This document shows positions 24,652 through 64,000 of a DNA stretch of 64,000 bases, piece after piece (within the stretch, counting starts at the first letter, position 1; each line of letters starts with the position of its first letter). The stretch is from Candidatus Latescibacterota bacterium. GTDB taxonomy: Bacteria; Latescibacterota; UBA2968; UBA8231. The position numbers and the translations under genes are program-made. Where the stretch lies: positions 3,808,001-3,872,000 of the forward strand of contig OZ241867.1 in assembly GCA_965203175.1 (NCBI GenBank), written 5' to 3'. The notes beneath the pieces are model-generated. The model did no database searches and was not told where the DNA came from. It was given only the letters and a program-made list of their open reading frames with translations.

Positions 24652-27600
24652 CTAATAGACTACGGCCACGATGCGGGCCAAGGCCGTGTCGGTGGCCCGG
24701 TCCGAATCGGCACCGAAATCAATCCGGCATATATAGAGGCCTGGCGGCACGGTGCGGTCAGCCGCATCGCGGCCGTTCCAGCGGATTTGCTGGGGGCCTC
24801 CTGACACTTGAGTGCTATTTTCCCATATCAGGCGTCCGTCCAGTGAGTAGAGGCGCAGACGCGCTTGGCGAGCTTGGGTCACTTGAAAGATGGAAAACGC
24901 GACGGTCAGTTCGTCGTTGATCCCGTCGCCATTGGGCGTAAAGGGGTTGGGAGCCAAGCTCAGGTCGCCGAGGACTTGCCCCCCCACGGGGATGCTCAGC
25001 GTCAGTTGGCGGCTGTCCGTTAGCGCAGTGGCGTCGCCTGGTTCTACTTGCTGCCACAAACTGCCGTCGGTGCCAGCGGCGGCGCGACGGACAAAAGGCT
25101 TAAAGGTGGTTCCGTTGCGAAAGATAGCAGCGGCAAAGCGCAAGTGGATCAGGGGGCCTTGGCCTAAGATGGCTCCGCGCTCGGCTCTGGGCAACGCGCG
25201 GTAGGTTGCGCGCGTCAGGGAATCGCCCAAGGCGTCAAAGGGCGATTGGGCCCCGCCGCCGCGCAGTTTGCGAAAATAGCGAATCGGCCCTTGTTCGGCT
25301 GAGGGCAAGTCATCGTACTCAGCGCGGCCAGAGACCGCTGCCAAGCCGCTGGCGGTCTGCCGCAAGAAGAGGATAGCTCCGCGCTCGGCCTCGTTGAGCA
25401 GGCCGTAGGCCACTTCTGTGATCAGGTCGCCGTCTTCGCCAACCATGACTTCGGCCCCTTGGGGGGTGATGCGGTGGTAGGTCTGAACTGCCTGCTCTGC
25501 CGGTAGGGTCTGGTGTAGTTGGGGCAGCAGGACCCAGATAGAGTCGGCGTGGTTGCGCCGCACTTGGGCGATGGCTCCAGCAGCGTCGGTCAAGTTGCCA
25601 TCGGCCGCTAGGGTAAATGTCTGCAAGGGGCTTCCGCGGCCTAGCTCTTCCTCGGTCCCTGTGCTCAGGCTCAACAGGTGCAGCGCGAGCCCGGGCGGAG
25701 CCTGCAACAGGATTTCGTCAAAGCCTGGGGTGCGGTCAGCCGCTGGTTCGTCTATGAATACCGGGCGCAGATACAGGTCGAACGTGTCTAGCTGGCCGAC
25801 CGCGGCCTGCGTGGGCCATACTTCGGCGGTGAGAGCGCGGGCTACGGGCGGGGCTAGCTCTACTTCGATCGAGCTAATTGAGGCGGCTTGCAGGCGATCT
25901 TGGCTGGTAAAGCGCACCTGCAACTGCATGTAATTGCGCAGCCCGGGGGAACGGACCCGGTCGCCCGGCTGTAGGTACTGCTGGCTCCAAGGACTCCAGC
26001 CGCTGCCGAGGGCAAAGGTGGTGTCGATGGGTCCCTTCCAACTGCTGATCAGCTTGTCCCATTCTTCTTTGGTCTTCTCGTTGCCGTTGACGTCGAAATG
26101 GCGAATTTGCTGCACCAGCAGATCGCCGGTGCGCGTCCGCACTTCCGCCGTCGTGCCGGAGGGGTGGGTACCGGGGGGCGGATCCCAGCGGATGGCCCCG
26201 AAGTTGCGCGGTCCCGGCAGGCGGATGATATCGGACACCAGTGAAGCTTGGCTGACAAACCCCTCAGTGTAGAGCAGGACTTCGGTCAGATCGTAGAAAA
26301 AGCCCGAAGTCCGCGCGATGCCCGGCAGGCGCAGGTTGAGGAAGCGGATATCTAGGGGTGGGTCAAAGCGGTCGGCGGCGCGCTTGAATCCCCCTTCCAT
26401 GCGGTCGGGTAGGCTGACCTGTCGCCACCGGAGCCGGCCATTGGGATCGCGGCTGCCGTCGGCCACCTCGGTGATGTAGCCGGGAATAAAGGGAACGGCC
26501 AAGCGCATGGCGTCGAGCCAGACGCGGGCACCAATATCGACGGTGAGAATGCCAGCGGTGGGATTGGTGCTAAACCACGCTGGCATGCGGAAGGTGGTGT
26601 TCCAGTCGCCGTCAAAGCCCCCAGCCGGGACTTCTGGTCCGGTAAAGCTAACGCTACCGCCCCCGTCAATTAGCTTAGGCGATAGGTTGTCGCCCCAGCC
26701 CCAGACTTCGACTTCGGCCAGCCGGGGCCGCTCGCGGAGATAGTACTCTTTGCGGCCCTGCTGTTCTTGGGGGAGGCTCTCGTAAATAGCCTGCTCCACT
26801 GGCTCCTCAAAGCCGACGTCGTCGCGGATGTAGTAGAGTATATCGCCTCGTTCGTCGGCCGGCAGGGCATCCCACGCCGCCTGGTCGATTTGGTGTGCCC
26901 GCCCCAGCTTGCTGTCGCCGATGAGAATGCGCACGGTTTGGGCCATGCGACCGGTCCACTCGGTGCGGTCGTCGTCGTCTTCGGAAAAGCCGGGCGTGTC
27001 CTCGGAAGAAAACGCCATGGTCCGCTGATTCGTATTGGGAGCTCGGGTTTGGCCGACCACCTTGAACTGGAGCACGCGGCTTTGGGCTTGAATGAGCTTC
27101 TGCTGGGGGGCTAGCATGACGCGGAACTGGCGGAAGGGATCGCCCAAGGTCTCATCGACAAAGTGCAGCACTACCTTCTCGACCACGACCGTGCGGCCCA
27201 AGTCGATCTCGATCCACCACTTGTCTGGCGTGGCCGCTAAGTCTGGTTCCCAAAAGGTGTCGCGGTCGCCATCGACAATGTAGGGGGCTAGGGCTTCGTT
27301 GGAGCCTACCCGGCTGACGCCGACGCGCTGGACGTAGTCGTACACCGGGAAGGCGATTTTGTCTTTAGCGCCAAATTCGCGCGTTGATTCTACCCCCGTG
27401 CGTTCGTCGCGCAGGCTTAGGGTCACGGTTTTGCCGTCGCCGCTGAGGGTGGTGTCGACGATGGTTAGGAGTCGGCCGTTGAGGGGGATCTGGCTGTGGT
27501 TGCCGGGGAAGCGTTTGAAGTCTCGGTTGAGGAATTTGATCAGTTGCTCGGCCTTGCTGACGGTAAAGCTGCCGTCTGCTTCCAGCGTCGGGGTGCGCTG

Positions 27601-27912
27601 GAGGTTCATAATCGCCCGATCCGCCTTGCGAATGCCCGGTTGGTCCACGGGTTTGGCAAATACCGCGCGATCTTCGGCGATGATGTTGTACACGTGGCGG
27701 AAGAAATGAGGCTTGACCGTCCCGTCTGGATGCACATCGACTACGTGCGAGGGCCCGGTCCAGTGTCGCCAATAGGAAGCCTTATCGACGATGATGCGAT
27801 CGCCCTGCAGACGGTGGCCTAAGGGCGCTTGGGCACTGACTTGCTGGAGGGCCAAACACCCAAAAGCTAAGGCCCAAATCCGGCTCCAACGGCTATATCG
27901 CTTGCGGTTCAT
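24652..27912 (-). CDS. Family B subtype B3: secreted discoidin-like + FlgD-Ig/CTD protein, 1086 aa
   Basis: Signal peptide; DGDRDTFW..WIEIDLG discoidin motif; WSPWS, SPGLRNYMQ, PNPFTPNGDGINDE, WNGRD...VPPGLY, ends AVVY. Confidence 0.75.
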   Translation of the reverse strand: MNRKRYSRWSRIWALAFGCLALQQVSAQAPLGHRLQGDRIIVDKASYWRHWTGPSHVVDVHPDGTVKPHFFRHVYNIIAEDRAVFAKPVDQPGIRKADRAIMNLQRTPTLEADGSFTVSKAEQLIKFLNRDFKRFPGNHSQIPLNGRLLTIVDTTLSGDGKTVTLSLRDERTGVESTREFGAKDKIAFPVYDYVQRVGVSRVGSNEALAPYIVDGDRDTFWEPDLAATPDKWWIEIDLGRTVVVEKVVLHFVDETLGDPFRQFRVMLAPQQKLIQAQSRVLQFKVVGQTRAPNTNQRTMAFSSEDTPGFSEDDDDRTEWTGRMAQTVRILIGDSKLGRAHQIDQAAWDALPADERGDILYYIRDDVGFEEPVEQAIYESLPQEQQGRKEYYLRERPRLAEVEVWGWGDNLSPKLIDGGGSVSFTGPEVPAGGFDGDWNTTFRMPAWFSTNPTAGILTVDIGARVWLDAMRLAVPFIPGYITEVADGSRDPNGRLRWRQVSLPDRMEGGFKRAADRFDPPLDIRFLNLRLPGIARTSGFFYDLTEVLLYTEGFVSQASLVSDIIRLPGPRNFGAIRWDPPPGTHPSGTTAEVRTRTGDLLVQQIRHFDVNGNEKTKEEWDKLISSWKGPIDTTFALGSGWSPWSQQYLQPGDRVRSPGLRNYMQLQVRFTSQDRLQAASISSIEVELAPPVARALTAEVWPTQAAVGQLDTFDLYLRPVFIDEPAADRTPGFDEILLQAPPGLALHLLSLSTGTEEELGRGSPLQTFTLAADGNLTDAAGAIAQVRRNHADSIWVLLPQLHQTLPAEQAVQTYHRITPQGAEVMVGEDGDLITEVAYGLLNEAERGAILFLRQTASGLAAVSGRAEYDDLPSAEQGPIRYFRKLRGGGAQSPFDALGDSLTRATYRALPRAERGAILGQGPLIHLRFAAAIFRNGTTFKPFVRRAAAGTDGSLWQQVEPGDATALTDSRQLTLSIPVGGQVLGDLSLAPNPFTPNGDGINDELTVAFSIFQVTQARQARLRLYSLDGRLIWENSTQVSGGPQQIRWNGRDAADRTVPPGLYICRIDFGADSDRATDTALARIVAVVY

Positions 27913-27938: not shown

Positions 27939-29594
27939 TTAAAAGGCGGTGAGGAAATCGTCGGGCAGGGCCGCAGCTAATTGCTGTTGGTCCACTTGGA
28001 TCTGATCGGCGTATTGCTGGCGCAGGGTTTCTATATAGGCTTGAAACCGCTCCCGCTCCTCGGCCCGGCGCAGCATGTCGCTAACCTGCCGGCGGACTTG
28101 GGCAAAAGGCATCCGTTCCCCCGGCTGGCGGCGGACGATCTTGAATACGGAGAAGCCATCGTGGACTTGCACCGGTCCGACTAGTTCATCTGGCTGCGCG
28201 GCTAGGATATGAGATACCAAGTCCGAAGTTTTCTCCATGGGAAAGACGCCGCCCCGCGCTTGGGCCCCTCGGCGTTTGCTGCGCTCTTGGCCTAGGGCCG
28301 CGATGTCGGCCCCCGCTTCGATTTGCCGCCGCACGGCTAGCGCTTCTTCTTCGGTCTCCACCAGTACTTCGGCCACGTCGATCTGGTCCCGGCGACGGAA
28401 GCGCTCGGTCTGCTCGTCATAGTAGCGGCGCACGGCCTCTGGGGCGATGGTGATGGATGCCACTACTTTTTGCTGGCGCAGTTGGCTGATGACGACCTCT
28501 TCGCGCAGGCTCTGCCGCACCGCTTCGAGGGTCTCTCGGTCAATTAAATCCTCGTGGTGGACCGCGGCGGCAAAGATGTAAGGCTGGAGCAGAAAGCGCT
28601 CGGCGAGTTGGACCAAGGCGGTGCTGTCGGCTACGGCGTTGATGTTGCGGTTTTTGAGTTGGTCGAGCAGCTCGCCTAGGGGCACTTGGCCGCCCGTAAA
28701 CTTGAACAAAGGCGTTCGTTCTTCCTCTGGCGTCAGTTCCAAGGCTGCCAACGGCTGGCCTTTTTCCAGCAGGAGGTGCAACCCTGGTTCGTGGAGATTC
28801 CAGTCGTATTTGTCGGCCAATTGTTCGGCCCGGGCCGCTCGCGCTTCGCCGAGTCTTTCCTCTTGGAGTTGTTGGAGGATTTCGTCCCGGAAGTCGAAGT
28901 AGGATACGGGCCGTTCCTCAGTAAAGCGCACGACGCAAAAGCCTGCGGAGTGGGGCAGTACGGGCGATAAGACCCCCAAGGGCAAATCGTAGAACAGCGA
29001 ATCGGGGAGGCCCATGCGGCGGATGGATTCCACTCGGAGCCAGCCGAGTTCGCCCCCGTTGACTGCGTCGGGTGTAATGGAGTAGCGGGCGGCCACTTCG
29101 CCAAACGGAGTGCCAGCGGCCAACTCGGCCACGGCTTGTTCTAGTTCCGGCCGCGCCTTGGCCATAATACCCCACGTCATTCGCTCTAACGTGCTGTGGA
29201 GTCCTTGGCGCTCGAAGCGCTGTTTGATCTCGGTCTCTTCAACAAGGGGCGGTTGCACGGGTTTGCGCTTGAGATAGAGGGCGACCAAATGCCGACGGAT
29301 TCTGCGCTCTAGTTGGCGCTGGGTTGTGGCCGCGGTGTCCAAACCGAGGGCTTGGGCTTCCAGCCACATGAGGTGGTAGTCGATGAGGGGTTGGAGGTAC
29401 TCGCGCCGCGCTGCCGAACCTTCTTGGCGGCTCCGCTGGCTTTCGTTTAGCCCTAGGACGTAGGATCGGAGATCCTCGGCGGTGATAGCGCGTGTACCGA
29501 TCTGAACCACGGCGGGGAATTCCTGCTCACCACAGCCCCACAAAAAGGCCCCGATCAGGGCGCAAGCTATTGTCGCGATGCGTACTCTGTTCAT
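27939..29594 (-). CDS. Lipoprotein peptidyl-prolyl isomerase, SurA/PrsA-like, two PpiC-type domains
   Basis: Lipobox LWGC; FGEVAARYS..A.NGGELGW; second rotamase ADIAALGQERS..RGG..GPV..GFSVFK. Confidence 0.8.
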   Translation of the reverse strand: MNRVRIATIACALIGAFLWGCGEQEFPAVVQIGTRAITAEDLRSYVLGLNESQRSRQEGSAARREYLQPLIDYHLMWLEAQALGLDTAATTQRQLERRIRRHLVALYLKRKPVQPPLVEETEIKQRFERQGLHSTLERMTWGIMAKARPELEQAVAELAAGTPFGEVAARYSITPDAVNGGELGWLRVESIRRMGLPDSLFYDLPLGVLSPVLPHSAGFCVVRFTEERPVSYFDFRDEILQQLQEERLGEARAARAEQLADKYDWNLHEPGLHLLLEKGQPLAALELTPEEERTPLFKFTGGQVPLGELLDQLKNRNINAVADSTALVQLAERFLLQPYIFAAAVHHEDLIDRETLEAVRQSLREEVVISQLRQQKVVASITIAPEAVRRYYDEQTERFRRRDQIDVAEVLVETEEEALAVRRQIEAGADIAALGQERSKRRGAQARGGVFPMEKTSDLVSHILAAQPDELVGPVQVHDGFSVFKIVRRQPGERMPFAQVRRQVSDMLRRAEERERFQAYIETLRQQYADQIQVDQQQLAAALPDDFLTAF

Positions 29595-29595
29595 G

Positions 29596-31650
29596 TCAAT
29601 AGGCTACGTATAGAGGGTGTGCCTGCAGGTCGTCGCCTAGGTCCCCGGCTACGGTTATGCCCAACAAGTACACGCCTGGGGGGACGAGTTGGCCACCAGC
29701 GGCTCGCCCGTCCCAAGTGAGGGCGTAACGACCGTTGCTGAGCGCCGTCTGCTGTAGGGTGTGTACCAGCCGACCCGACAAGTCGTATAGGCGCACCGCG
29801 ACGGCACCGGCCTTGGTCAGCGCCAAGATGTTATAGGCGATAGCGACTTGGTCGTTGATCCCATCGCCATTGGGCGTAAAGGGGTTGGGCGTCAGCTCGA
29901 GGGCATCAATCAGCCGTTCGCTGCGGATTACCGAAGGACTGAGCACCGTGGTGCCCGAGTGGGTGGGCTGGTCTTCGTCCCCCAAGGCGGCGCTATTGCC
30001 CGAAGTGGCGTTTTGAAACGAACCGGGTTCGCTCGACAGCGAGGCCTGCCCGCGAAATTCGGTGCTGAAGGCCAGCACGGACGCGCGAAACCTGATTTTC
30101 AGCAGGCTATCATCGGCTTGGATAGGCGGAAAGCGCACGCTGAAATGGTCCTCTGCAATGGCGTTGATGGCAAGCCCCGAACCGCCAGCCGTATCGCCTT
30201 GCGCAAAGGCGTGGGAGGCGACTAGCTGACCTTGGGCATCGAGAATTTCTACCTGTTCCACCTGTTCCACTCGAATGGGGGTAGTTATCGCAAAAGTATC
30301 GAATCCCAGTAGGTCCGGCGAATCCATGCGCATCCGCACGGCATAGGTAAAGGACGTAGAGGTTGAAGCCTCTACTTGGCGAGGGAAAATCTCGGCGACG
30401 AATTCGTCGGCCAGCGGTGGAGTCAGGTACGAAAGGGAGATGTGCTCAAGGCGGCGCGCCGATTGGATATCATTGCTCTGAGCGCTGACGCGGAACTGAA
30501 GGTAGTGCCGCGGCGAAGGGGAGATGATCGGGGTGCCTTGGGGGGACGTGCCCTCGTCGAGCGGATAGGGAGGGCTCCAAGGACTCCAGTTTTCCAGATC
30601 GTCCTTGATCGAGCCTTTGGACCACATGACGCCATTATCATCTACTAAGGGGAGTTGTTCGTACTCGTCTAGGCGCATGGGCTCGGTGGGATCGGCAATG
30701 GAAAAGGGGATCTCGGGGTCGGTGCGCTTGTCCGTGCGCTGGCGGTGAAAAACAAAAGGCGTGTCGTCATTGCCGCTGCGCGTGGAAATCAGCAGACTGG
30801 ACTGGGCTGAGTCTCCCACGGCTTTTTCCACCCAGCGAATGCGACCCCAAGCCGCAAGGCCTGGGGCGAAAATATCCGAGAAGTACGAAGCCGCCGGCAA
30901 AAAGCCAGTGCCGTAGATTTCGATCTCGTCTATTTCAAAGGGGATGGGCGTGGCCGAGCGCAGGCGGAAGGAGCGGATATAGCGGGGCGGATCGAATTCG
31001 ATGTCAACGACGGGCTTGGTGTTTTGGGCTTCCTCCACTATGGGCGAGCCCCATACGGGAAAACCATCGGCCGTGAGGTTGAGTCCGTCGTTGACAAACA
31101 GCTCAAACGCGCGCAAAAAGTCGTTCTGAAAGGCGGCCGTGGGCGCGGGGTGGACCGTATTGCGCGGGTAGAAGCGAAAGCGATTGACGCCGAAGCGGGC
31201 CCCTAAATCGCCGATGATGAGGGTGCCGCGCACGTCGCCACTTTTGCGCTCAAAGGCTTGAGTCTCACCGCCGGCTAGGTCGCTGAGAATTTCAGCGAGG
31301 GCCTCGGTGAGATCCTCGCGGGTGAAGTCCGCGGTGAAGCGCAGCACCGTGGGGGCGGCTATGGTGCCGCCGCGTTCGAGGGTGCCCGAAGCGATGTTTT
31401 CGCCCTCTTGCAGTTCCCGGGGCGCTAAGACTCGCTGGGAAAAGTCGATGAGTTCGCCTGGGGAGTTACCTATCAGCACTACGTTGGGATTGACCAAGCT
31501 GCGGTACTCTGGGTCCAACGTGCCGATAGCAGCACCGGTGCCATCCCAGTCGATAGGGGCGTCCAAGCCGACGCTGAGCGTATCCAAGGCCTCGACCGGG
31601 GCCGTGAGGACGAGGGCTGTTAGGCTGTGAGCAAGTAGGCTTCTCAACAT
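29596..31650 (-). CDS. Family B subtype B1: secreted discoidin-like + FlgD-Ig/CTD protein
   Basis: ATG at 31650 behind AGGAG/GGAG; signal peptide; DLGARFGVNRFRFYPRN, WSPWSPPY, SPSPRHYLQF, PNPFTPNGDGIND, ends YVAY. Confidence 0.75.
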   Translation of the reverse strand: MLRSLLAHSLTALVLTAPVEALDTLSVGLDAPIDWDGTGAAIGTLDPEYRSLVNPNVVLIGNSPGELIDFSQRVLAPRELQEGENIASGTLERGGTIAAPTVLRFTADFTREDLTEALAEILSDLAGGETQAFERKSGDVRGTLIIGDLGARFGVNRFRFYPRNTVHPAPTAAFQNDFLRAFELFVNDGLNLTADGFPVWGSPIVEEAQNTKPVVDIEFDPPRYIRSFRLRSATPIPFEIDEIEIYGTGFLPAASYFSDIFAPGLAAWGRIRWVEKAVGDSAQSSLLISTRSGNDDTPFVFHRQRTDKRTDPEIPFSIADPTEPMRLDEYEQLPLVDDNGVMWSKGSIKDDLENWSPWSPPYPLDEGTSPQGTPIISPSPRHYLQFRVSAQSNDIQSARRLEHISLSYLTPPLADEFVAEIFPRQVEASTSTSFTYAVRMRMDSPDLLGFDTFAITTPIRVEQVEQVEILDAQGQLVASHAFAQGDTAGGSGLAINAIAEDHFSVRFPPIQADDSLLKIRFRASVLAFSTEFRGQASLSSEPGSFQNATSGNSAALGDEDQPTHSGTTVLSPSVIRSERLIDALELTPNPFTPNGDGINDQVAIAYNILALTKAGAVAVRLYDLSGRLVHTLQQTALSNGRYALTWDGRAAGGQLVPPGVYLLGITVAGDLGDDLQAHPLYVAY

Positions 31651-31660
31651 GCTCCGGCTC

Positions 31661-33947: not shown

Positions 33948-34874
33948 CTACTTAAAGCGGGCCTTAATGCGGCCCCAGCTGTCGTCTTCGACCGCAGTAG
34001 AAGCGACAAAGGCCGGATCCGGTTCGGCTAGGAACCAATCGTTGACGGACGAGCAGCAATTATCAAAGGTGCTCCAGTAGCCGCAGCAACCGGGGGTGCG
34101 ATAGTTGTTGAAATCGCCGTCGTTGTCGATCTGGACGATGGAAATGTGGATGATCTGACCTTCTTCCAGATCCCATACTTCCAGATCGTCGGGCTGGTAT
34201 CCGCCCTCTTGGCCCTTGGGGTACGAGCCTACGGGCGTGAGACCCATTTCGTAGTAATAGGTGCTCTCGCCGAATTCGTCGCCATCCCAAGTGTAGTTAA
34301 ATTCGAGCCAATCAGTGCCGGGCCATAGCCACTCAGTGCCGGTCAACTCGCCCGGCCGCAACCAGAACCAGTCGCCGAGGGTTGGGTGGACGGGCACCGA
34401 GAAGTTGTAGCGGGTATTGATGCCGATGTTTTCGTCGTTGATGTCGACGTAGCCGCCGTCATCGGCATAGGCGTCGTGGTTATAGGTAAACGACACCTCC
34501 CACGAATCGTCCTCGCTCCAGTGGCTGGTGCGGTCCATGTTGTGCTCGTCGTCAAAGGTCTGGGTGGCCATATAGATCTTGTTGTCCGTCTCGTTCCAGC
34601 CGACCCGGTGCAACATGCTGAAGTCGGTGACGTCCCAGTCGGCGTTGCTCCAGCCTTCGGGCACTAGACCACGGGCGTCGTTGAAGACCGAGTTGTCGAT
34701 GCCATAGGAGGCGGGCACTCCGTCCCAGTCGCCGTGATTGCCGTCAATGGTGGGGGTAGCCCCGTCGGGAAACTGGACGACAAACCAAACCGTGCCGGCA
34801 TCCCAGTGCGCTTGGCCCGTATTGGGCAGGGCCGCCAAGGCGAGAACTGCAAAGAGAATAGCAATGCGCTTCAT
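33948..34874 (-). CDS. Secreted CBM9/DOMON-like protein with C-terminal TAVE..SWGRIK motif (308 aa)
   Basis: ATG at 34874 behind AAGGAGG (the ORF-track start at 35084 overlaps the neighbour); signal peptide MKRIAILFAVLALAALPNTGQA; PTIDG..GDW motif; ends STAVEDDSWGRIKARFK. Confidence 0.8.
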   Translation of the reverse strand: MKRIAILFAVLALAALPNTGQAHWDAGTVWFVVQFPDGATPTIDGNHGDWDGVPASYGIDNSVFNDARGLVPEGWSNADWDVTDFSMLHRVGWNETDNKIYMATQTFDDEHNMDRTSHWSEDDSWEVSFTYNHDAYADDGGYVDINDENIGINTRYNFSVPVHPTLGDWFWLRPGELTGTEWLWPGTDWLEFNYTWDGDEFGESTYYYEMGLTPVGSYPKGQEGGYQPDDLEVWDLEEGQIIHISIVQIDNDGDFNNYRTPGCCGYWSTFDNCCSSVNDWFLAEPDPAFVASTAVEDDSWGRIKARFK

Positions 34875-34941
34875 GAACCAACCTCCTTTGGATGAGTTCG
34901 ATGAAATAGACAGAAGAAGTGTCTCGTTCCTGCGAATTTTA

Positions 34942-34970: not shown

Positions 34971-34992
34971 GCAAAAAGTGAGCAGGGTTCCG

Positions 34993-38561: not shown

Positions 38562-38564
38562 GGT

Positions 38565-55680: not shown

Positions 55681-58479
55681 TTACTGTTCCACCCCGGCGT
55701 AGATGGTTATGAAGGTAGTGGTGCCAGTTGCGGTGGTGGACTTTTTGTCGACCTCCAGATCCATCATCTCGATGGCCTCTAAGGATGTCCTAGATAGTCG
55801 GAATCCTGTCTGTAACAATAATACGTAGCCTAGGTAATCCGTCGTGGTTGACCACTGAACGGCTAGGTTAGTCTCGTTTAGATCCCCCGTTGGTCCCAGT
55901 ACGCTGTCCTGGACCAAGGCATCTTCGTCTGCCTTCAATTCCCTTAGCTGTCTGAACTCCGTGCCCATTTCAATCATCGAATGCCTCAGCACTGGGAATT
56001 TGAGAATCACCGACAAGAATCCATCCCATTCCTCGATATCTGCCTCGCGGCGCAAGAATGGTGTGCGCTTCAAGTACTGGCTTTTGAAGCGCGGCTGGAT
56101 GCTCAGACCTTCAAGTCGGTAGGTATAATCAACTTTGTTGATAAGCCCGAAAAAGGACGACCTATCGTGGAGCGGGCTTCTGTCCAAAGCCCTGAGATCA
56201 TCGCTGCGCTGAACGTACAGATCGTATTTGATCTTATTGCGGATGTTCAACTGCGAAATCCGCGTATAGTCGAATCCGATAAACAGGGAATTCACCCAGG
56301 TATCCTGGGCGGGCAGAATATCGGCAACCTTAGCGGGCAGACCCGCCAAGAGAAATCCCTGTGGCGCACGGCGGTCATCGGGGATGGTATCTTTGGCTCG
56401 TTTTAGCATATTGAACGCCCGCAAACGCCCTAGGCCGGCCCAATTCTCATCCACGGTCACTAGCCCGTAGGTGGTCGTATTCTCTCGCTCGGAGGAGAGC
56501 AGTTCCTCGCGGGTCTGTCCCACGCTCACCCGGACACTTGGGATGACATGAGCTCCGGAATAGGCATTGTAGCCTCTGTGGTCCCTCTTGTAGGGGAAAT
56601 CTGGCTCGTCGTCGTTCTCGAAACGGTCAATCCAGTCGTTGTTGTTCAAGTCAATGCCAAAGAGAAATTCCGGCCGGTCGACCTCGTACCTGAGAAAGGG
56701 CTCGTCGTAATCGGGGATGCGATTGCTGATTGTCCGATTGTCGTTCTGGTTGAAATCGCTCACGAAATCGTTGTTTTCGTCCCAGCCGGGGAAGATGGCA
56801 AAATCGGGACCTGGCTGACCGCCTCGCTGCCAATCGGGCAGCCGATCCTGATCGTCGTTATCTTCGACGAACTCGTAGAAAAACTGGGAAGGCTGATCGT
56901 AGTTGATATCGCCATTTTGGTTGAGTAGGAAGGAACTAGTGGAGTAGTCGTGGTCCATGGAAAAGGCCTCGCCGAAGAAGAACCAAGGATAATCCTGAAA
57001 GGAGAGGTTCATCATCCAAGCATCCGCTCGGGTCGAAGCATCCTCAAAGGAACGATCTTCGGTAAACAGGGCTAGGTTGGGATACTGCCTGAATTTCTGG
57101 TTGATGTCGTACTCGCCGTAGAAGTTGAAACCTAGGACGTCCTGCGCCTCAACGGTAAAGCCATAAATCTGCGTGGCAGTGGGTAGGCCGTAGTCGAAAA
57201 CCAACCTTCTCCGGTTGGAGCCATCCTTGGTATTGTCGGGTGCACGTGCGATCTCGATCAGGACCGGATTCCTCTCGTCGAGGATCGCTCTGGTCAGAGG
57301 TGCTTCCGGTGGGGTTTCCTGCCCGGTCTGGCGGTCGGACCACACCTCGACTTTGTAGTCGTTGGCCAGGACCAAATCAAAGGTCACTTTTACGATCTCA
57401 GTCGGGTCGGGACCGACATAGGCCGGATCGTTAAAATCGTAGTTGATGATGATCCGCTGAATGCCGTTGGCCGCCAAGAAACCCTCTTCCCGAAAACCGC
57501 CTTCTATGACTGGCCAGCGCGTTGGATCGTTGGTTAGGTCGGCGAGGCTGAGCGTTTCGCGGATTCCGTTCTGGAAATCTTCGCGCACCACGATTAAATC
57601 GTGGGAAAAAAGCGCGGTTCCTCCCTCTCCGTCTTCGGGCGAATCATCGCTGAGCACGAGGGCGATGGCGTTAATAGGCACTCTGGCCTGCCCGTCGCCG
57701 AGTGTGCCCTTGGTGGGATTGCTGTCGAAGGAACCCAGCGTGGTACGGGTGTTGTGGGCATTGACCCAAGTCGCGCCGACGGTGACGAAATCGCCCACCT
57801 GGGCTAGGGCCCGGCCGCCGAGCATATTGGTGGCATTGGTCCGGGTATCGGCGCTGGAGACGGACGACCTGACCGGACTACTGATCCTTGAAAGGAGGAG
57901 CGTGCCAGCGTATTTATCGGCTGCGAGATCTAGCTGAATACCGTTGAATGCAGGCTTGGAAAAGGTCATGGGGGTAAGGGTGGTGCGTATCTGATCCCCC
58001 GTGGTTATGGAGTAGAGAGTACCGCCTTTTGAATCCGTGGCGATCAATACTTGATTGAACCAACCCTGATACCGCGAATCCTGGTAGATGGAACTGCCCA
58101 GAGGGGTCAAGGCTTCCTGACGCCAGTCGTAGATGAGCCAGCCCCGGTTGACGAAATTGCCGAACGTGTCGTAGAAATATTCGCCTTCCCGAGTCGTGTT
58201 TACGTAGCGCTCATAGCGATCTCGGGCATAGTTGGAGTATTCCCAAGTCCGGAAGCGGTAATCGTGGTAGAGTTCTTGGGGGACATACCATCGTTTCACT
58301 GTGGGGTCAAGGGCGTCGAAAAATACCCCTGGTCCCAAGGGTTCAAAGGTGACCTTGCCCCCCCTCTGCTGCCCGAGGCGGTTGTTGTAGTCTTGGGAAA
58401 AAGCCGTCGTGTTCAAAGCCGCGACTATCCACAGTGCTATCCATACTCTGGACCATTCTCTGTAACCTGCATCTACCAT
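55681..58479 (-). CDS. Family A putative outer-membrane beta-barrel protein (paralog 3 of 3)
   Basis: Signal peptide; GPGVFFDALDPTVKRWYVPQELY, RTTLTPMTFSKP, FPGWDENNDFVSDFNQNDN, GIDLNNNDWIDRFEND; ends FITIYAGVEQ. Confidence 0.7.
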   Translation of the reverse strand: MVDAGYREWSRVWIALWIVAALNTTAFSQDYNNRLGQQRGGKVTFEPLGPGVFFDALDPTVKRWYVPQELYHDYRFRTWEYSNYARDRYERYVNTTREGEYFYDTFGNFVNRGWLIYDWRQEALTPLGSSIYQDSRYQGWFNQVLIATDSKGGTLYSITTGDQIRTTLTPMTFSKPAFNGIQLDLAADKYAGTLLLSRISSPVRSSVSSADTRTNATNMLGGRALAQVGDFVTVGATWVNAHNTRTTLGSFDSNPTKGTLGDGQARVPINAIALVLSDDSPEDGEGGTALFSHDLIVVREDFQNGIRETLSLADLTNDPTRWPVIEGGFREEGFLAANGIQRIIINYDFNDPAYVGPDPTEIVKVTFDLVLANDYKVEVWSDRQTGQETPPEAPLTRAILDERNPVLIEIARAPDNTKDGSNRRRLVFDYGLPTATQIYGFTVEAQDVLGFNFYGEYDINQKFRQYPNLALFTEDRSFEDASTRADAWMMNLSFQDYPWFFFGEAFSMDHDYSTSSFLLNQNGDINYDQPSQFFYEFVEDNDDQDRLPDWQRGGQPGPDFAIFPGWDENNDFVSDFNQNDNRTISNRIPDYDEPFLRYEVDRPEFLFGIDLNNNDWIDRFENDDEPDFPYKRDHRGYNAYSGAHVIPSVRVSVGQTREELLSSERENTTTYGLVTVDENWAGLGRLRAFNMLKRAKDTIPDDRRAPQGFLLAGLPAKVADILPAQDTWVNSLFIGFDYTRISQLNIRNKIKYDLYVQRSDDLRALDRSPLHDRSSFFGLINKVDYTYRLEGLSIQPRFKSQYLKRTPFLRREADIEEWDGFLSVILKFPVLRHSMIEMGTEFRQLRELKADEDALVQDSVLGPTGDLNETNLAVQWSTTTDYLGYVLLLQTGFRLSRTSLEAIEMMDLEVDKKSTTATGTTTFITIYAGVEQ

Positions 58480-58537: not shown

Positions 58538-60760
58538 TCAATAGGCCACGCCTATGAGGCCGCTCGCCCCGGCCTTGCCGCCGTCGGTGTCCAAATCAAT
58601 GTTGAAAATGTAGAGGCCAGGCGGTACGGTGTTTCCCCGGCCATCTGTGCCGTCCCACGTTCTAGTAAAGCGACCACTCTGGTCGATCCCGCGATAGACT
58701 TCCCGCACCATGCTGCCGGACAAGTCGTATATCCGCAGACCCACATTGGCCCCACTGATGAGATCGGTTATATCAAAGTGTATCTGCGCACTATCGTTGA
58801 TCTGATCCCCATTGGGCGTAAAGACTGTTGGTACGGCGTTGACGTTGATCAGCAAGTCACCCTTTTTCGCCACTTGGACCACTAGATTTCCCGGGTCGCG
58901 GATGAGTGAGGCATTGGAACTTTCTTGGGTCAGGGCAAAGACATTGCCTCCCACCACCCGTTGCGGCACTTCGCCGGGGGTTTCAGACAACGCCAAGGAG
59001 GAAAAGGCGGTTCCAGTCCGCAGTACCACGCATTGGAAGACCACATCCAAGGCAGTCATCTGTCCCGCTTCTATGCGGCTGTTTTCCACTGTGGGGAAGC
59101 TGATCTGGAAGCGATTTTCCTCTACCAAATCAATGCGGAAATCTCCGCGTTCTACCGGGAGGTCGCTCAGGTCTGAGTCCGAGAAATTCTGTTCGAGGCG
59201 GGATCCATCCGGCAGCGACATCCCAATCCGATCTACTGCGTCCACCTTTACGGGTGTGCTGATTTCGACGGAACTGAAGCCTTGATCGATTTCGGGCCGT
59301 ATATCGGGAACAAGCACTAGGGAAAACTCTGTTTTTTGACCCAGGTCCGCCTGACGCGGGGTGATTTCTCCCACGATCTCTGAGGCCAGTACCGGGCTAG
59401 AAAAATCGAAAGACAGCGAACCGATGCCCTTGGCTGAAAAGAGATCTTCACTCAAATAGTCCACCTTGAACTGAAAGTAGCGTCTTGGACCGGGAGACAC
59501 GATTGGCACCCCGCCCATCCCAGCGGATACATTATCAGCGCTAGTTATACCCGCGCTCGCATAGGGCGGAGACCAAGCGCTCCAGTTTTCCAAGTCGTCC
59601 CGCACCGAACCTCTATTGCCCGACCTCAGTTTTTTGTATTCGGCTTGGGTCAGCGATATCTCATTCTTCCTATCGAGAGGGAGGTCTTTGTATAGCAGCC
59701 GGGCCCGCTTTATGTCGAGATCGGGCGAGTCGAGTTGGCTAACGATTTCCCTCGCTTGACTGCCTTCGTCGAATTCCTCGGCCGTCTTCCAAGGCACTTC
59801 AGCTCCGTCGAGATCGCTGCGGAGGCGATTGAACACGACTGGAGAATCGTCAAAGCCGCTCCTAGTACTGATGGGCACTTGGGAGCGGATGGGGTCGCCC
59901 TGGCTTTCCTCCTCCCAGCGCAAATTTCCCCAAAGGGCTAAATTTTCTCCCAGATCGAATACATCTGAATGATACTCTGCCGTGGGCACGAAGCCTTCGC
60001 CGAAAACTTGGAACTCGCCTATTTCAAAGCCCACTGTGGTCTGGGACTTTAGCTGGAGGTAGCGCACATACTGGGGCTCTATCTGCACATCCACTACTGG
60101 CTGATCGTTCTGCAGTACGAGCAGAATGCTGGTAAATACCGGCAAGCCAGCGGCTAGTGTCTCTCGTGTGCCGTCGTTAAGAAAAAGCTCATAGGCCCTC
60201 ATGTAATCGTCCTGAAAGGGAAAATCAGGAGCGAGAAAGTCTGGATCGGCGTTCCTGGGGAAGAAGCGGATGCGACTCACACCAAATCGCGCTCCTAGGT
60301 CGAACTGGAGGACCACGCCCAGCGCCCGGACATTCTGACCAGGGGAACTTTTCCTTTCAAAGGCCGAGCTGGCATTATTGTCTATCATTTTCAACAGATC
60401 TTTGCTCAGATCTGCGAGAACAGTGGGCGCGGTTACGGACCCGCCTCGGTCCAGCAGTTGCAAGGCGATGTTGTCAGTTTGGTCGGCCTTTTCGGGAAAA
60501 ATCCATCCCTCCCGCGCAGAAAAGTCGATAATCCCTCCAGGTACGTTTTCGTTGGTCACCTCTTGGGGGCCTAAGATGATTATCGGATCTATACCACCTC
60601 CACCGTCCTGCCAAGGTCGGCCTTCCGCTCCACCGAGAATGATTAACTCCTTGGTTTCCCCAATACCCACAGACCCGTAGGCGGAGAGCAAAATCCCTAT
60701 AATCAGATATGAGCGTAAATTCGAGCTAAAATCCACTTGCATCGGAGTCCTAACCTCCAA
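58538..60760 (-). CDS. Family B subtype B1 paralog
   Basis: RGGSVTAPTV, AFERKS, DLGARFGVSRIRFFPRN, FQDDYMRAYELFLNDG, WSAWSPPY, FTPNGDQIND, ends GVAY; start may be the ATG at 60742. Confidence 0.75.
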   Translation of the reverse strand: MEVRTPMQVDFSSNLRSYLIIGILLSAYGSVGIGETKELIILGGAEGRPWQDGGGGIDPIIILGPQEVTNENVPGGIIDFSAREGWIFPEKADQTDNIALQLLDRGGSVTAPTVLADLSKDLLKMIDNNASSAFERKSSPGQNVRALGVVLQFDLGARFGVSRIRFFPRNADPDFLAPDFPFQDDYMRAYELFLNDGTRETLAAGLPVFTSILLVLQNDQPVVDVQIEPQYVRYLQLKSQTTVGFEIGEFQVFGEGFVPTAEYHSDVFDLGENLALWGNLRWEEESQGDPIRSQVPISTRSGFDDSPVVFNRLRSDLDGAEVPWKTAEEFDEGSQAREIVSQLDSPDLDIKRARLLYKDLPLDRKNEISLTQAEYKKLRSGNRGSVRDDLENWSAWSPPYASAGITSADNVSAGMGGVPIVSPGPRRYFQFKVDYLSEDLFSAKGIGSLSFDFSSPVLASEIVGEITPRQADLGQKTEFSLVLVPDIRPEIDQGFSSVEISTPVKVDAVDRIGMSLPDGSRLEQNFSDSDLSDLPVERGDFRIDLVEENRFQISFPTVENSRIEAGQMTALDVVFQCVVLRTGTAFSSLALSETPGEVPQRVVGGNVFALTQESSNASLIRDPGNLVVQVAKKGDLLINVNAVPTVFTPNGDQINDSAQIHFDITDLISGANVGLRIYDLSGSMVREVYRGIDQSGRFTRTWDGTDGRGNTVPPGLYIFNIDLDTDGGKAGASGLIGVAY

Positions 60761-60774: not shown

Positions 60775-62679
60775 CTAGTAGGCGACATGTAATGGTTTTA
60801 CGGCCTCGACCGTTTGATGGTCGGCCTCGACAGAGACGCGGTATAGATACAGCCCCGGCGGCACCAGCCGCCCCGACTCGTCCAGACCATCCCACGTCCG
60901 CTCATAGACACCAACCCCATCCAAGCCCTCATACACCTGACGCACCAGCCGCCCCGACAAATCCCACACCGCCACTACCACCCAGGACGGACTCGTCAAC
61001 TCCACCAAGCTATACCCCAAGCCCACTACATCGTTGTGCGCATCCCCGTTGGGCGTCAAAACCGTTGGTCCGGCCTCTATCTGCAGCACGTTTTGATGTT
61101 GCGCGCGGGTGGCTACCCACACCCGATTGTCCTCATAGGCCGGGGTAGCATCGCCTTCCTGCACGCTCTGGGGCACCTCCAACGGTAGGGCACTGTCCCA
61201 CACTCGCATTGAAAAAGCCGAGCCATAGCGCAATACCTCCGCCTCGAAGAGCACCTCGACCAAAGCACCCGAATCCTGAGCTGTCAGCCGAGGGATACTC
61301 ACGACCACTCGGTGTGGCTCGGCCGCTTCCACGGCATAATCTACCGGCTCATCGCCGATGCGCACTTGGCTTACGGGACCTAGCCGCGCCACGGTGGCCA
61401 CCTCCAATCGGTCAAAGCCGCCACTATCCACCCCAATGGTGGGTCGCATCACATAGGTAAACTGCTGCGGCTGTCCCACCTTTACTTCGACCGGCCAGAC
61501 CTCGCCGACCAACTGCGTGGCCACCGGTGGGGAAGCGCGTACTTCGAGAAAGTCCACCTGCCCACCATCGTCGTCTTGGGGCAGAAAATCGACCCTAAGT
61601 TGGAGGTAGCGTCTTGGACTCAGCGACACCACGGGGGTGCCACTGCTGTCGGTAAAGGCATAGGGGGACGACCAGAACGTCCAGTTGGCTCGATCGTAGC
61701 CGATACCAGCTTTTTCACCGATAGCTAGCTTGGCGTAGTCGGTTCGGCTGACGGATATTTTTTCGTCGCCTCGTCCGGTGAAGCGCCAGAACAGGTTGGG
61801 GTCTTCGTCTTGTCCAGATCGGGATTGGATGAGGACGCGGGCTTTGGGGTCTTGTCGTCCGGCCCAGCGCAGGTTGCCCCAGGCCATCGGCTGACCAAAA
61901 TCGAGAATATTGGAGATATAAGTCGATTGTTCGACAAAGCCTTTGGCGTAGACTTCTATCTCGTTGACTTCCCAGTCCTCGTTGTGCTCGCCGATAGTGA
62001 CTTGAACAAAACTCGCTCTATCGTGCGGTGGGATGGGGATATCGAGGATCTGCTCTCGATTGTCGCGCACCTCGACGATCCAAGGCGAATAGGGGCGGGG
62101 GTGCTGGTAAACAGCTTGGCTTGGCTGCTCTTCGTTGAGGTGGATGCGAACGTTCTGTGCTATTCTGCTCGGATCGGTCAACCCGGATATAATCCGAATC
62201 CGGTCGATGAGATGAAGAACCCCCAGATTGAGATTTGCCGTGCCCGGAGTGCCGAAATCGTCGGTGCAGCTAAGGAAGTAATTCCTTTCCTCGAATTCGG
62301 AGCACAGATATCGTTCTGCTAACCAGAAAGTGGTGGTGTCCCCATCCCATACCTGCCCGTTCGTTTGCTTTCTGATATGGCTTCCCCCTTTTTCTTCAAT
62401 TCCGGGGGCTATATTGAAGGTAGGATCTCGTTTTAGAGCCCGAATGGCGGCGGCGTCTATATCCAGTTCGATGGTCTCTCCGCCTAGGGAAGGATCGAGA
62501 TCGGTCCAACTCAACTGGATAAATTCCACCTCTTCACTGTCTACTTCTGGAGGTGGATCCAGCGTTTCGCCACCAAAGCGGTAGATGACCAGCCCAGAGG
62601 CCTCGTCTGCCAAAAAACCGACCCAAAAACAGAAAGGCCAGATCAGGGTACAAAAGAATGGAGCCGTCCTCATTGACAT
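60775..62679 (-). CDS. Family B subtype B2 paralog
   Basis: WDGDTTT, DWEVNEIEVYAKGFV, ILDFGQPMAWG, WTFWSSPY, SPRRYLQ, LTPNGDAHND, ends HVAY. Confidence 0.75.
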   Translation of the reverse strand: MSMRTAPFFCTLIWPFCFWVGFLADEASGLVIYRFGGETLDPPPEVDSEEVEFIQLSWTDLDPSLGGETIELDIDAAAIRALKRDPTFNIAPGIEEKGGSHIRKQTNGQVWDGDTTTFWLAERYLCSEFEERNYFLSCTDDFGTPGTANLNLGVLHLIDRIRIISGLTDPSRIAQNVRIHLNEEQPSQAVYQHPRPYSPWIVEVRDNREQILDIPIPPHDRASFVQVTIGEHNEDWEVNEIEVYAKGFVEQSTYISNILDFGQPMAWGNLRWAGRQDPKARVLIQSRSGQDEDPNLFWRFTGRGDEKISVSRTDYAKLAIGEKAGIGYDRANWTFWSSPYAFTDSSGTPVVSLSPRRYLQLRVDFLPQDDDGGQVDFLEVRASPPVATQLVGEVWPVEVKVGQPQQFTYVMRPTIGVDSGGFDRLEVATVARLGPVSQVRIGDEPVDYAVEAAEPHRVVVSIPRLTAQDSGALVEVLFEAEVLRYGSAFSMRVWDSALPLEVPQSVQEGDATPAYEDNRVWVATRAQHQNVLQIEAGPTVLTPNGDAHNDVVGLGYSLVELTSPSWVVVAVWDLSGRLVRQVYEGLDGVGVYERTWDGLDESGRLVPPGLYLYRVSVEADHQTVEAVKPLHVAY

Positions 62680-62717: not shown

Positions 62718-64000
62718 TCAGTACGCTACATGGACCACCCGCTGCACAAAAGTGTTATCGGCCGAGCCAGAATCCACATCCACCTTTACCCTAGCCAAGT
62801 ATATCCCCGGAGGAACCGGCTCGCCCAAATGATCCTTGCCATCCCAGCGAAAAGTATAATTCCCGCGAGGATCTGGCCGGCGTTCTTCTATCCGATTGGC
62901 CTCAACCCCACTCAGATCGTAAACGGTCAGAGTCACTGGTCTCTCAGCACCCACCCGCGCTACGCCAAAGCTGACTACTAGCTCATCATTGACGCCGTCC
63001 CCATTGGGCGTGAATACCCGCGACCCCAGTCTGAAATCCCTAATAATTTCGTCCCCGCTGAGTGCTAGGACGGTGACGGTCTGGCTGCTGACCAGTTCCG
63101 TAGGATCGCCCTCGTCAACTCGCTGCCAGAATCCAGGTACGGCGGAATTCTGTACCAGGGCTCTAAAGGAGGCACTGTTGCCGAATATGGTAGCGCGAAA
63201 CCGGACCTGAACTAGTTCCGTTCCGCGGTCAATTTTCTCGTCCAAGCGCAACATGAGGGAGTCGGCAGGCGTATCGATCAGAGTCAGATCAGCTGGTGCG
63301 TAGTTGGTGGTTTGTCCGTTGGCGAAATCATCCTTACTTCCCGTCCGGACTTCAAGCAACTCCATCTCAGTACCCGCCGTGGCCTCTAAGCTGATCTCGT
63401 CGAAACCTTGGCCTGTCGCAGTGAAATCAGGCCGGATGAAGTAAGAGAATTCCTCAGGGGTGCCCACGGTCTCAATCCGGGTGGGCCATACTTCTCCCAC
63501 CAGCCGATCAGCAACGGGATCTGAGGTGTTGATGGCAATGGAGCGGAGGGTGGCACCCGCGTCCGCCCTGTCCGAGAGCAATATGAGCCGAAGTTCCATA
63601 TACTGTCTAGGACTGGGGGATTTGATCGCTTCCCCGGACTGAGTGTTCGGCACGCTCCACGTGCTCCAATCGTCACCCGGTTTGAATGTGCTGGTGATAT
63701 CGCCCTTTTTGGACTTAGGCAGCTTGTTGTAGCGCTTCTCGGTGACTACTTTGCCATTGGAATCGTGGTAGATTTTCTCTTCTATCAGCTCATTGCCTGT
63801 CCGGGTCTGCAGTTGGACCTGGGTCCCGGCCGGTGTATCCGCCTCCCACTCTACGGAAATCAGGTTCTTAGGTTCGTTAAATTGGATTAGATCCGAGGTC
63901 AGCGATACTTCCGCCACAAAGCCCTCGCCATAGAGCATCACTTCCGTAAAAGCTATGTAGCTGAGCGAACTCAATGGATTCTGGAACGGCGAGCGGATAA
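62718..64000 (-). CDS. Family B subtype B3 paralog, 5' truncated by window edge
   Basis: Frame stays open to 64000; TEVMLYGEGFV, QTRTG, WSTWS, SPSPRQYM, FTPNGDGVNDE, ends HVAY. Confidence 0.75.
   Translation of the reverse strand, partial: IRSPFQNPLSSLSYIAFTEVMLYGEGFVAEVSLTSDLIQFNEPKNLISVEWEADTPAGTQVQLQTRTGNELIEEKIYHDSNGKVVTEKRYNKLPKSKKGDITSTFKPGDDWSTWSVPNTQSGEAIKSPSPRQYMELRLILLSDRADAGATLRSIAINTSDPVADRLVGEVWPTRIETVGTPEEFSYFIRPDFTATGQGFDEISLEATAGTEMELLEVRTGSKDDFANGQTTNYAPADLTLIDTPADSLMLRLDEKIDRGTELVQVRFRATIFGNSASFRALVQNSAVPGFWQRVDEGDPTELVSSQTVTVLALSGDEIIRDFRLGSRVFTPNGDGVNDELVVSFGVARVGAERPVTLTVYDLSGVEANRIEERRPDPRGNYTFRWDGKDHLGEPVPPGIYLARVKVDVDSGSADNTFVQRVVHVAY

Follow-up and report, generated by a model that had tools for sequence, protein, structure and literature searches.

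The subject of this study is a family of large proteins, here called family B, encoded in two gene cassettes on a 64,000-nucleotide stretch of DNA (the window) from a Candidatus Latescibacterota bacterium (assembly GCA_965203175.1, contig OZ241867.1, positions 3,808,001 to 3,872,000). Each cassette carries three family-B genes, and a first-pass annotation of the window had proposed that these represent non-redundant subtypes, B1, B2 and B3, rather than a random expansion of paralogues. The proposal is strongly supported: the three subtypes occur together in 23 of the 24 loci of this genome that have a B1 gene and in 10 of the 11 such loci found elsewhere, and trees in which the proteins group by cassette are rejected. 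We read B1, B2 and B3 as anciently diverged paralogues that are probably not interchangeable and that would form the co-inherited core of a larger cassette.

The six family-B open reading frames (ORFs) had been located correctly, all of them on the minus strand, and their translations are free of stops. Their coordinates, like all those given below unless a genome position is named, are positions in the window, which lies inside a single 6.58 Mb contig. In cassette 1 the genes are B2a (31661..33823, 720 aa), with a hydrophobic N-terminal signal sequence and a C-terminal domain of CHU_C and FlgD_ig type; B1a (29596..31707); and B3a (24652..27912, 1086 aa), which has a CHU_C domain and an additional N-terminal F5/8-type-C domain. 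The longest ORF of B1a has 703 codons, and translation most likely starts at Met20 (position 31650), because the close homologues measure 684–692 aa; with this start, the 47-nt overlap with B2a turns into a gap of about 10 nt. In cassette 2 the genes are B3b (62718..64000), B2b (60775..62679, 634 aa) and B1b (58538..60760, 740 aa). B3b is cut by the end of the window, which contains the C-terminal 426 aa; the complete gene (genome positions 3870718–3873309) encodes 863 aa. On the genome-wide tree described below, each of the six proteins falls in the clade of its name.

As the first-pass annotation had noticed, the six proteins pair across the cassettes: in an all-against-all blastp comparison, the best partner of each is always in the other cassette. 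B1a and B1b align over about 700 aa (353 bits, 35.7% identity), as against 184–209 bits between B1 and B2 proteins; B2a and B2b reach 267 bits at 34.5% identity; and B3a and B3b align in two segments of 149 and 109 bits (37% identity), with B3b scoring 154–161 bits against the B2 proteins. Proteins of the same cassette share 25–31% identity, or 34–35% in the C-terminal segments that align with B3a. The sequence motifs described for the three subtypes can all be found in the translations, but in the B2 motif written GE.WP.EV...Q.FTYV the spacing from EV to Q is five residues and not three. Two simpler accounts of the pairing were considered and discarded. That the six proteins are recent tandem duplicates is ruled out by the identities within cassettes together with the tree tests given next, and that the pairing is due to the common C-terminal domain alone is ruled out by the B1 and B2 pairs, which align over almost their full length.

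Thirty family members, one for each subtype at 10 hand-chosen loci out of the 61 defined below, were used for a tree calculated with IQ-TREE. Support by the Shimodaira–Hasegawa-like approximate likelihood ratio test (SH-aLRT) is 97 for B1, 96 for B2, and 100 for B3 taken together with its sister clade, C3. Trees uniting the three proteins of one cassette were rejected for both cassettes by approximately unbiased (AU) tests (p = 1.2e-6, log-likelihood difference 432, and p = 1.2e-5, log-likelihood difference 368); grouping is by subtype, and not by cassette. Every subtype has conserved positions of its own. For B3, subtype-specific conserved positions and regions lie at residues 200–500; in B2, conservation over the first 300 residues is lower than in any other part of the three subtypes.

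How far does the trio extend beyond the window? A profile made from the six proteins and run against all ORFs of the genome of at least 150 aa gave 237 matches. Full-length matches, covering more than 40% of the profile, number 169 and are the basis of the clade counts; the 68 others match almost only in the C-terminal domain and were set aside. The 169 genes account for 5.86% of the genome. When family-B genes less than 10 kb apart are joined, 61 loci result, with cassette 1 as Loc31 and cassette 2 as Loc32. In a FastTree phylogeny over 567 columns, B1 has 24 members, B2 has 37 and B3 has 35. A second set of clades comprises C1 (8 members), C2a (4), C2b (6), C2c (12) and C3 (18), and there are also a “solo” clade, S3 (13 members), and the small clades D, E and F; two members, Loc19.3 and Loc24.1, are outside the named clades.

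The 24 B1 genes lie in 24 separate loci, none of which has a second B1. B2 and B3 are both represented, each at least once, in 23 of these loci, and 17 have the three subtypes at exactly 1:1:1. Over 10,000 rounds of shuffling the subtype labels of the 96 B1–B3 genes, complete trios averaged 7.7 and never exceeded 17; the observed 23 was reached in none of the rounds, and neither was the number of 17 exact 1:1:1 trios. The trio had been described as fixed, with one of each subtype per cassette. This holds for B1, which is always single, but not for its partners, because extra tandem copies of B2 and/or B3 (2–4 copies) occur in 6 of the 24 loci (Loc01, 16, 23, 26, 32 and 38). A second kind of trio, duos and solos exist as well.

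A further part of the first-pass description concerned the adjacency of B2 and B1. It is kept in both cassettes of the window but, counted from the gene listings, in just 8 of the 24 B1 loci genome-wide; in the remaining loci a B3 gene or a gene for a predicted barrel protein intervenes, and the orders found include B2-B3-B1. One otherwise typical locus, Loc20 (C1:2530722–2543156), has its B1 inverted relative to B2, B3 and the barrel gene, and co-transcription of B1, B2 and B3 is therefore not obligatory. Another observation concerns the region 7.4 kb upstream of cassette 2, where three further B2 genes stand in tandem on the minus strand (C1:3880677–3886511, equivalent to window positions 72677–78511). 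They are 71–80% identical to B2b and among themselves, and invariant columns make up 22–55% of the first 200 residues versus 50–82% of those beyond. Judged from these alignments, the variable first ∼200 residues of the extra copies fit a specificity-determining head that is diversifying.

Relatives in other species were sought in one scan of species-representative genomes, from which 80 related loci were kept. In 63 of these, mostly from Bacteroidota, the match is to the C-terminal domain alone (the last ∼170 residues). Full-length relatives are confined to the other 17, whose labels are all Latescibacterota/Latescibacteria, Handelsmanbacteria or Gemmatimonadetes/Gemmatimonas; this distribution rules out that family B is ordinary cargo of the type IX secretion system (T9SS) of Bacteroidota. 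The 17 loci were typed by placing their 45 family members on the tree. The check that had been suggested for the trio, a phylogeny of the homologues in related genomes, speaks in its favor: 10 of the 11 foreign loci with a B1 hold B1, B2 and B3 within 10 kb, one of them labelled Handelsmanbacteria, and the eleventh, the shorter locus L012, has B1 and B2 only. The six foreign loci without B1 consist of B3 alone on short contigs (two loci), a B2-B3 pair at the end of a locus, a C2c-C3 duo, a D-D pair, and an unplaced member paired with B3. For many of the foreign proteins, the sister on the tree is a single paralogue of the genome studied here, in a one-to-one relation, so that much of the expansion is older than these species.

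By what route, then, did the trios multiply? In the 17 exact loci the distance matrices of B1, B2 and B3 are correlated with one another (Mantel r = 0.87, 0.85 and 0.94), as are those of B1 and the barrel (r = 0.90), and in each case none of 5000 permutations gave a value as high. The congruence of the subtype trees indicates that the cassettes were duplicated as whole units. Between paralogous cassettes, identity within a subtype averages 36–39%. We picture a process in which duplication of the whole unit would multiply the cassettes and selection would then retain a single B1 together with one or more copies each of B2 and B3. A second trio, composed of C1, C2a or C2b, and C3, is present in seven loci, for example Loc03 (L003:4383–10627). 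On the 30-member tree C1 and C2 are sisters, and likewise B1 and B2; trees joining B1 with C1 (p = 0.0018) or B1 with C2 (p = 0.0008) are rejected, p-values that are weakened because the naming of the groups to be tested followed inspection of the tree. The topology suggests that the three-subtype state arose twice, through two independent divisions of the “1/2” lineage. Duos of C2c and C3 occur in eight loci, and the solos are the members of S3.

The trio does not travel alone. ORFs around all 61 loci were clustered into families whose representatives were scanned, and occurrence was tallied for 24 B-trio, 7 C-trio, 6 solo and 8 duo loci. A protein of ∼900 aa (f2), predicted to form a large beta-barrel, is encoded in 24 of 24 B-trio loci (15 of which have two copies), in all 7 C-trio loci, in no solo locus and in one duo locus. 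A secreted protein of ∼310 aa (f4) is found in 21 of the B-trio and all 7 C-trio loci, and in none of the solos or duos. Third comes a peptidylprolyl isomerase (PPIase) resembling SurA and PpiD (f5), with 23 of 24, 7 of 7, 0 of 6 and 1 of 8. Two families of membrane proteins are less constant: f6, with the domains DUF6785 and DUF6784 and 7–13 hydrophobic segments (13 B-trio, 3 C-trio, no solo and 2 duo loci), and f11, a PMT_2-like protein with tetratricopeptide repeats (TPR), which is limited to 11 B-trio loci in the tally. Conversely, f10 (265 aa) is present in all 7 C-trio loci and in no locus of the other types. The barrels amount to 2.6% of the genome, and the DUF6785 genes near family-B loci number 34 genome-wide. 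We also observed 37 f5 genes within 12 kb of family-B loci, about one per trio cassette; so many periplasmic folding factors in a single genome are unusual.

Few of these families can be named. Six f2 proteins gave no Pfam-A family (E ≤ 0.01–0.05) and the f2 protein of cassette 1 no NCBIfam family; f4 matches nothing in Pfam or NCBIfam; and in the same databases f10 has a single weak match, DUF7952 (E = 0.022). A profile of f2, searched against 1.84 billion proteins, matches 973 representatives at E ≤ 0.001, and in the phylum 36 of the 61 sampled genomes match; the 25 without a match include all 16 of one family. The Atlas offers leads, which are not tests: f4 adjoins clusters carrying CBM9_1 (scores 0.93–0.98), and f2 is surrounded by unnamed clusters only, the nearest named one being DUF6029 at 0.88. 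Farther out, the neighbors include FG-GAP/ASPIC proteins, TPR proteins and PhyH dioxygenases. Others are sulfatases, FGE-type enzymes that modify sulfatases, members of the enolase superfamily, GFO/IDH/MocA oxidoreductases, aldo-keto reductases, a DHDPS-family enzyme and permeases of ATP-binding cassette type; by their family assignments, the genes of this second group would fit the catabolism of sugars and sugar acids.

Both cassettes of the window follow this plan. Read in the direction of transcription, cassette 1 comprises genes for a DUF6785 membrane protein, f4, B2a, B1a, the PPIase, B3a, f2 and the PMT_2/TPR protein, and cassette 2 comprises B3b, B2b, B1b and two copies of f2; genes for f4, a PMT_2/TPR protein and a PPIase lie past the end of the window, 5′ of cassette 2. 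All of the companion genes of the two cassettes within the window are on the minus strand. In cassette 1, the DUF6785 and DUF6784 protein at the head (34993..36933) is polytopic, with 10 hydrophobic segments and a Pfam match at E = 1e-119. The CBM9-like secreted protein f4 (33948..35084) has no Pfam match; its start is probably at MKRIAILF (position 34874), which gives a protein of ∼308 aa ending in the tag TAVEDDSWGRIKARFK. The PPIase between B1a and B3a (27939..29594) matches Rotamase_2, Rotamase and Rotamase_3 as well as NCBIfam models of peptidylprolyl isomerases and SurA, every one of the latter under its cut-off, and its N-terminus resembles a lipoprotein signal (...LWGC). The barrel f2 (21967..24627, 886 aa, secreted), which is probably the “family A” of the first-pass annotation, has no Pfam or NCBIfam match. 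The tail of cassette 1 encodes f11 (19737..21986), a membrane protein with 9 hydrophobic segments, strong TPR matches and a PMT_2-like (GT39/83-type) region that scores 25.6 bits, narrowly below the cut-off of 26.1. In cassette 2, the first barrel-like copy (55681..58479, 932 aa) was assigned to f2 by blastp and is 46% identical to the f2 of cassette 1, and the second (52811..55591, 926 aa) belongs to the same family; neither has a Pfam match.

With regard to the architecture of the B proteins, an AlphaFold2 model of B1a built from 56 sequences has a mean predicted local distance difference test value (pLDDT) of 88.8 and a predicted template modeling score (pTM) of 0.78. It consists of a signal sequence, a jelly-roll head (∼41–270), two beta-sandwiches (∼272–430, with a WSPWS-type motif, and ∼435–560), a linker, and the C-terminal domain (600–703). 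A Foldseek search against the Protein Data Bank (PDB) returned single-domain matches and no whole-chain match. The clearest is between the N-terminal head and a carbohydrate-binding module (CBM) of family 32, 2xqx, with a TM score of 0.73 on the target; S-layer and biofilm-matrix proteins are also among the matches. The plan of a B protein is a signal peptide, a CBM32/discoidin-like head, two more beta-sandwich domains and a T9SS-type C-terminal domain. Candidate carbohydrate-binding modules are the predicted CBM32-like head of B1a, the F5_F8_type_C domain of B3a (residues 208–266, 32.1 bits against a cut-off of 28.2), and f4 by its CBM9_1 lead. The model of the cassette 1 f2 protein (52 sequences) is less certain, with a pLDDT of 65. 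It has ∼24 long strands, a beta-sandwich inserted at 269–392, and a low-confidence Asp-rich stretch at 521–611; its best Foldseek matches are the outer-membrane barrels BtuB, FimD/PapC, other TonB-dependent receptors, SlpA and LptD, at TM scores of 0.14–0.26. A complex prediction for B1a 41–565 with B2a 22–470, made from separate alignments and with B3 not included, scored 0.00, with the mark at 0.32; this result speaks neither for nor against a complex.

All six B proteins end in a domain of ∼100 aa that matches CHU_C and/or FlgD_ig. CHU_C is at or above its cut-off of 27 in five of the six (B2b has 23.3), and so is FlgD_ig (no match in B3a). Only B1a and B2a score above the cut-off of 23 for the T9SS type A sorting model TIGR04183, and the type B model TIGR04131, to whose type CHU_C also belongs, stays under its cut-off of 35 in all six; additional, weaker NCBIfam matches are to T9SS sorting domains and to the PorU tail. 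At the other end of the chain, B1a (from Met20), B2a, B3a, B1b and B2b have a charged start followed by a hydrophobic stretch, read off the translations by eye. The genome encodes SprA (TIGR04189, 618 bits, cut-off 200) and PorU (NF033707, 632 bits, cut-off 420), and a PorV-like gene adjoins porU (147 bits, under the cut-off of 250). In terms of sequence criteria, the B proteins qualify as T9SS cargo, and the N-terminal signals, the C-terminal domains, SprA and PorU together make export through Sec and then through the T9SS to the surface the simplest reading.

Words of the window occur in public sequencing runs. DNA runs from several studies, labelled as sponge or marine metagenomes, contain 50–92% of the sampled B1a–B2a words, and six RNA runs contain 12–14%. 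Contigs from four RNA libraries of three studies, 92–96% alike, cover 28–30 of the 30 bins of cassette 1; single contigs span f2-B3, B3-PPIase, PPIase-B1-B2 and f4-B2. These contigs derive from a close relative and not from this strain. In all four libraries, we observed that the f4 contigs (window 33513–35234) have a mean word depth of 115–850 versus ∼5–25 for most of cassette 1, or 10–40 times that of their neighbors. At most, this hints at f4 being the most abundant transcript, as contig depth cannot rank genes.

What might such a cassette do? The core would consist of the CBM9-like f4, the three B proteins, one or two f2 barrels and the f5 PPIase, often accompanied by the DUF6785 and PMT_2/TPR membrane proteins. 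In the reading that we prefer, and to which we give about an even chance, B1, B2 and B3 would form a three-part surface capture unit built around the cassette’s own barrel, comparable to a polysaccharide utilization locus (PUL). The B proteins would be exported via Sec and then via the type IX system, and displayed jointly on the cell surface beside f2, in whose folding the dedicated PPIase may help. The trio would capture one substrate, most likely a glycan, which may then be taken up through f2, and separate cassettes would serve separate substrates, in the manner of Bacteroidota PULs. A heterotrimer or an ordered assembly, as considered in the first-pass annotation, is plausible. A bolder version, possible although on the doubtful side, is that the cassettes encode a new class of outer-membrane acquisition machine. 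Here a hetero-oligomer of T9SS-delivered B1, B2 and B3 would sit on a novel, plug-less barrel of ∼24 strands. A SurA-like chaperone specific to the cassette would mature this barrel, and a DUF6785 transporter in the inner membrane would be coupled to it. The genome would hold ∼31 copies of the machine (24 of B type and 7 of C type), and the trio state would have evolved twice from a two-subunit ancestor. If this were true, there would have to be a structural reason why the number of subunits came to three in both cases.

A number of findings weigh against the capture unit. At Loc19, an unplaced family member occupies the position where B2 is expected. The order of B1, B2 and B3 varies between loci, and the stoichiometry is loose, given the multiple copies of B2 and/or B3 in a quarter of the B1 loci. 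The contact of B1, B2 and B3 with one another or with f2 is something that we infer. The pLDDT of f2, together with the lack of a match to Plug, TonB_dep_Rec or any other Pfam family, makes its transport role a guess. No glycoside hydrolase family was found among the scanned representatives of the neighbor families f2–f31 (f21 excluded; f25 has no match of any kind), and the T9SS component GldM was not detected with TIGR03517, a model that is silent in every control genome as well. The RNA-library contigs are only a modest indication of transcription, because RNA libraries can hold DNA. Finally, copying whole cassettes would by itself yield one of each subtype, so that the pattern is partly a matter of history.

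This last point leads to a rather unlikely alternative, in which an ancestral cluster of three paralogues was simply copied whole and the proteins act independently, as binding proteins or adhesins for different epitopes, with no complex between them. The congruent subtype trees and the copying of cassettes as units speak for it, as do the loose copy numbers of B2 and B3 and the variable gene order; the duo and solo members, which occur without f2, f4 and f5, indicate that a B protein can act alone. What speaks against this account is retention: the trio is kept in 23 of 24 cassettes in spite of a mean identity of 36–39%, which argues for need, and it is kept in 10 of 11 foreign loci too. Moreover, B1 is never doubled within a locus, a three-subtype arrangement appears to have arisen independently a second time, and each subtype has its own conserved positions. 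We regard as improbable that the cassettes provide a variable coat of the surface, or a repertoire of adhesins, for life in a host, with alternative cassettes providing alternative surfaces or attachment specificities rather than uptake. Such a role would suit the sponge- and marine-labelled DNA runs from four studies that carry 50–88% of the sampled words of this stretch, the discoidin/CBM32-like heads, a fold that also serves adhesion, the S-layer and biofilm-matrix proteins among the Foldseek matches, and the N-terminal heads that differ among recent copies. It is harder to reconcile with cassettes that lie amid catabolic genes, sulfatases and transporters, and with the many paralogues that have one-to-one foreign counterparts, unlike systems of fast-turnover variation; no invertible or recombination elements turned up, although no search was aimed at them. 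Distinctly improbable, in our view, is an ordered fiber or stalk in the manner of chaperone–usher systems. In it f2 would serve as the pore in the outer membrane and f5 as the chaperone in the periplasm, with B1, B2 and B3 added in a set order as tip, adaptor and shaft subunits. The idea draws on the FimD/PapC pores among the top Foldseek matches of f2 (rank 2, E = 3e-5), on the beta-sandwich between the barrel strands of the model, on the presence of an own periplasmic folding factor in every cassette, and on B proteins built as chains of immunoglobulin-like (Ig-like) domains. Against this, the scanned cassette proteins have no Usher or PapD-like Pfam match, TM scores to usher pores are 0.14–0.23, the T9SS-type ends of all B proteins together with SprA and PorU offer another exit, and multidomain proteins of 630–1090 aa are unlike pilins.

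The comparison with known systems returns to the capture unit. In Bacteroidota, PULs combine SusC and SusD with surface glycan-binding proteins of the SusE/SusF type in “utilisomes”. The cassettes resemble them in that many paralogous loci are present per genome, each with a barrel gene beside several paralogous but non-redundant Ig-like or CBM-like surface proteins, and in that the loci lie near catabolic enzymes and inner-membrane transporters. They differ in having no SusC-type Plug or TonB_dep_Rec match among the proteins scanned: six f2 proteins were searched with Pfam-A, and the similarity of the f2 model to TonB-dependent barrels is weak (TM 0.17–0.26). Likewise, no SusD/RagB match was found by Pfam in the cassette proteins of the window or in the scanned representatives of the neighbor families. 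Further differences are that the B proteins have T9SS-type C-terminal domains and not lipoprotein signals, that each cassette has its own PPIase, and that the DUF6785, f2, f4 and B-core families are without a named function. The cassettes are most like PULs with SusE/F-type binding proteins, yet they are not members of that class.

Two other systems are partly similar. T9SS cargo such as SprB and RemA of Flavobacterium, with PorP/SprF-like partners, shares with family B the C-terminal domains found in all six proteins, the presence of SprA, PorU and a PorV-like gene, and the gene for an outer-membrane protein, here f2, that adjoins the cargo genes. On the other hand, the type B sorting model does not reach its cut-off in any of the six and the type A model does so in two only, and f2, at ∼900 aa, has no Pfam-A match at E ≤ 0.01–0.05, PorP/SprF included. 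PorP/SprF proteins are about one-third the size of f2. For T9SS cargo, we know of no description of loci that each hold the same three subtypes. Chaperone–usher operons likewise encode a fixed set of several paralogous Ig-like subunits, along with a large barrel for the outer membrane and a periplasmic folding factor. There is, however, no sequence-family match to them: neither an usher (PF00577) nor a PapD-like Pfam domain was found in the cassette proteins scanned. Moreover, the folding factor here is a parvulin-type PPIase and not PapD-like, and the B subunits are large and multidomain, with T9SS-type ends.

Full-text literature searches on these bacteria, in which supplements are not visible, yielded no description of such cassettes, and a full-text search for DUF6785 found no mention. 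In the parts available, one genomic paper on these bacteria speaks of non-specific porins and TonB import (PMC4454575), and the accessible text of another has no passage that matches the cassette terms searched (PMC7081726). Current annotation pipelines label these genes “hypothetical” or “FlgD Ig-like domain containing”. Family B makes up nearly 6% of this genome and its partner barrels another 2.6%; the organisms are uncultured, and the homologues carry labels of Latescibacterota or Gemmatimonadota. If the cassettes are capture machines, they would be the counterpart of PULs in this group and a handle for predicting which substrates are consumed. In that case they would also be a natural experiment on how obligate multisubunit surface complexes arise from paralogues, carried out twice here. 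Even on the least exciting reading, a number of protein families are newly defined, and the genomic signature is clear.

Two minor observations remain. The C-terminal tag of f4, (T/S)AVE..SWG.IK, is encoded at positions 33948–33995, and 88 other genes across the genome carry it. The corresponding pattern, [ST]W[GA].[IVL]K, is found in 89 of 4573 chosen ORFs, always within 25 residues of the C-terminus, and no protein has it at another position. Its carriers include 34 f4 (CBM9-like) proteins and 10 beta-propeller proteins of the PD40 type (f12). The tag may be a sorting or anchoring signal; it is unlike exosortase-type tags in that no hydrophobic helix trails it.

The other observation concerns the DNA between the two cassettes, where four genes for DUF6785 and DUF6784 proteins lie within 17 kb, at 34993–36933 and 41785–43761 on the minus strand and at 47425–49455 and 49506–51461 on the plus strand. 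The first of these is the one at the head of cassette 1. Membrane glycosyltransferase-like genes are found at 37023–46817, with a weak arabinofuranosyltransferase-like match (37023–38561), a weak HTTM match (40400–41788), and PMT_2 and TPR (43792–45606); the same stretch encodes a GMC-type oxidoreductase (38966–40390) and a protein with an FGE-sulfatase domain (45597–46817). The products of these genes may modify surface proteins or their substrate.

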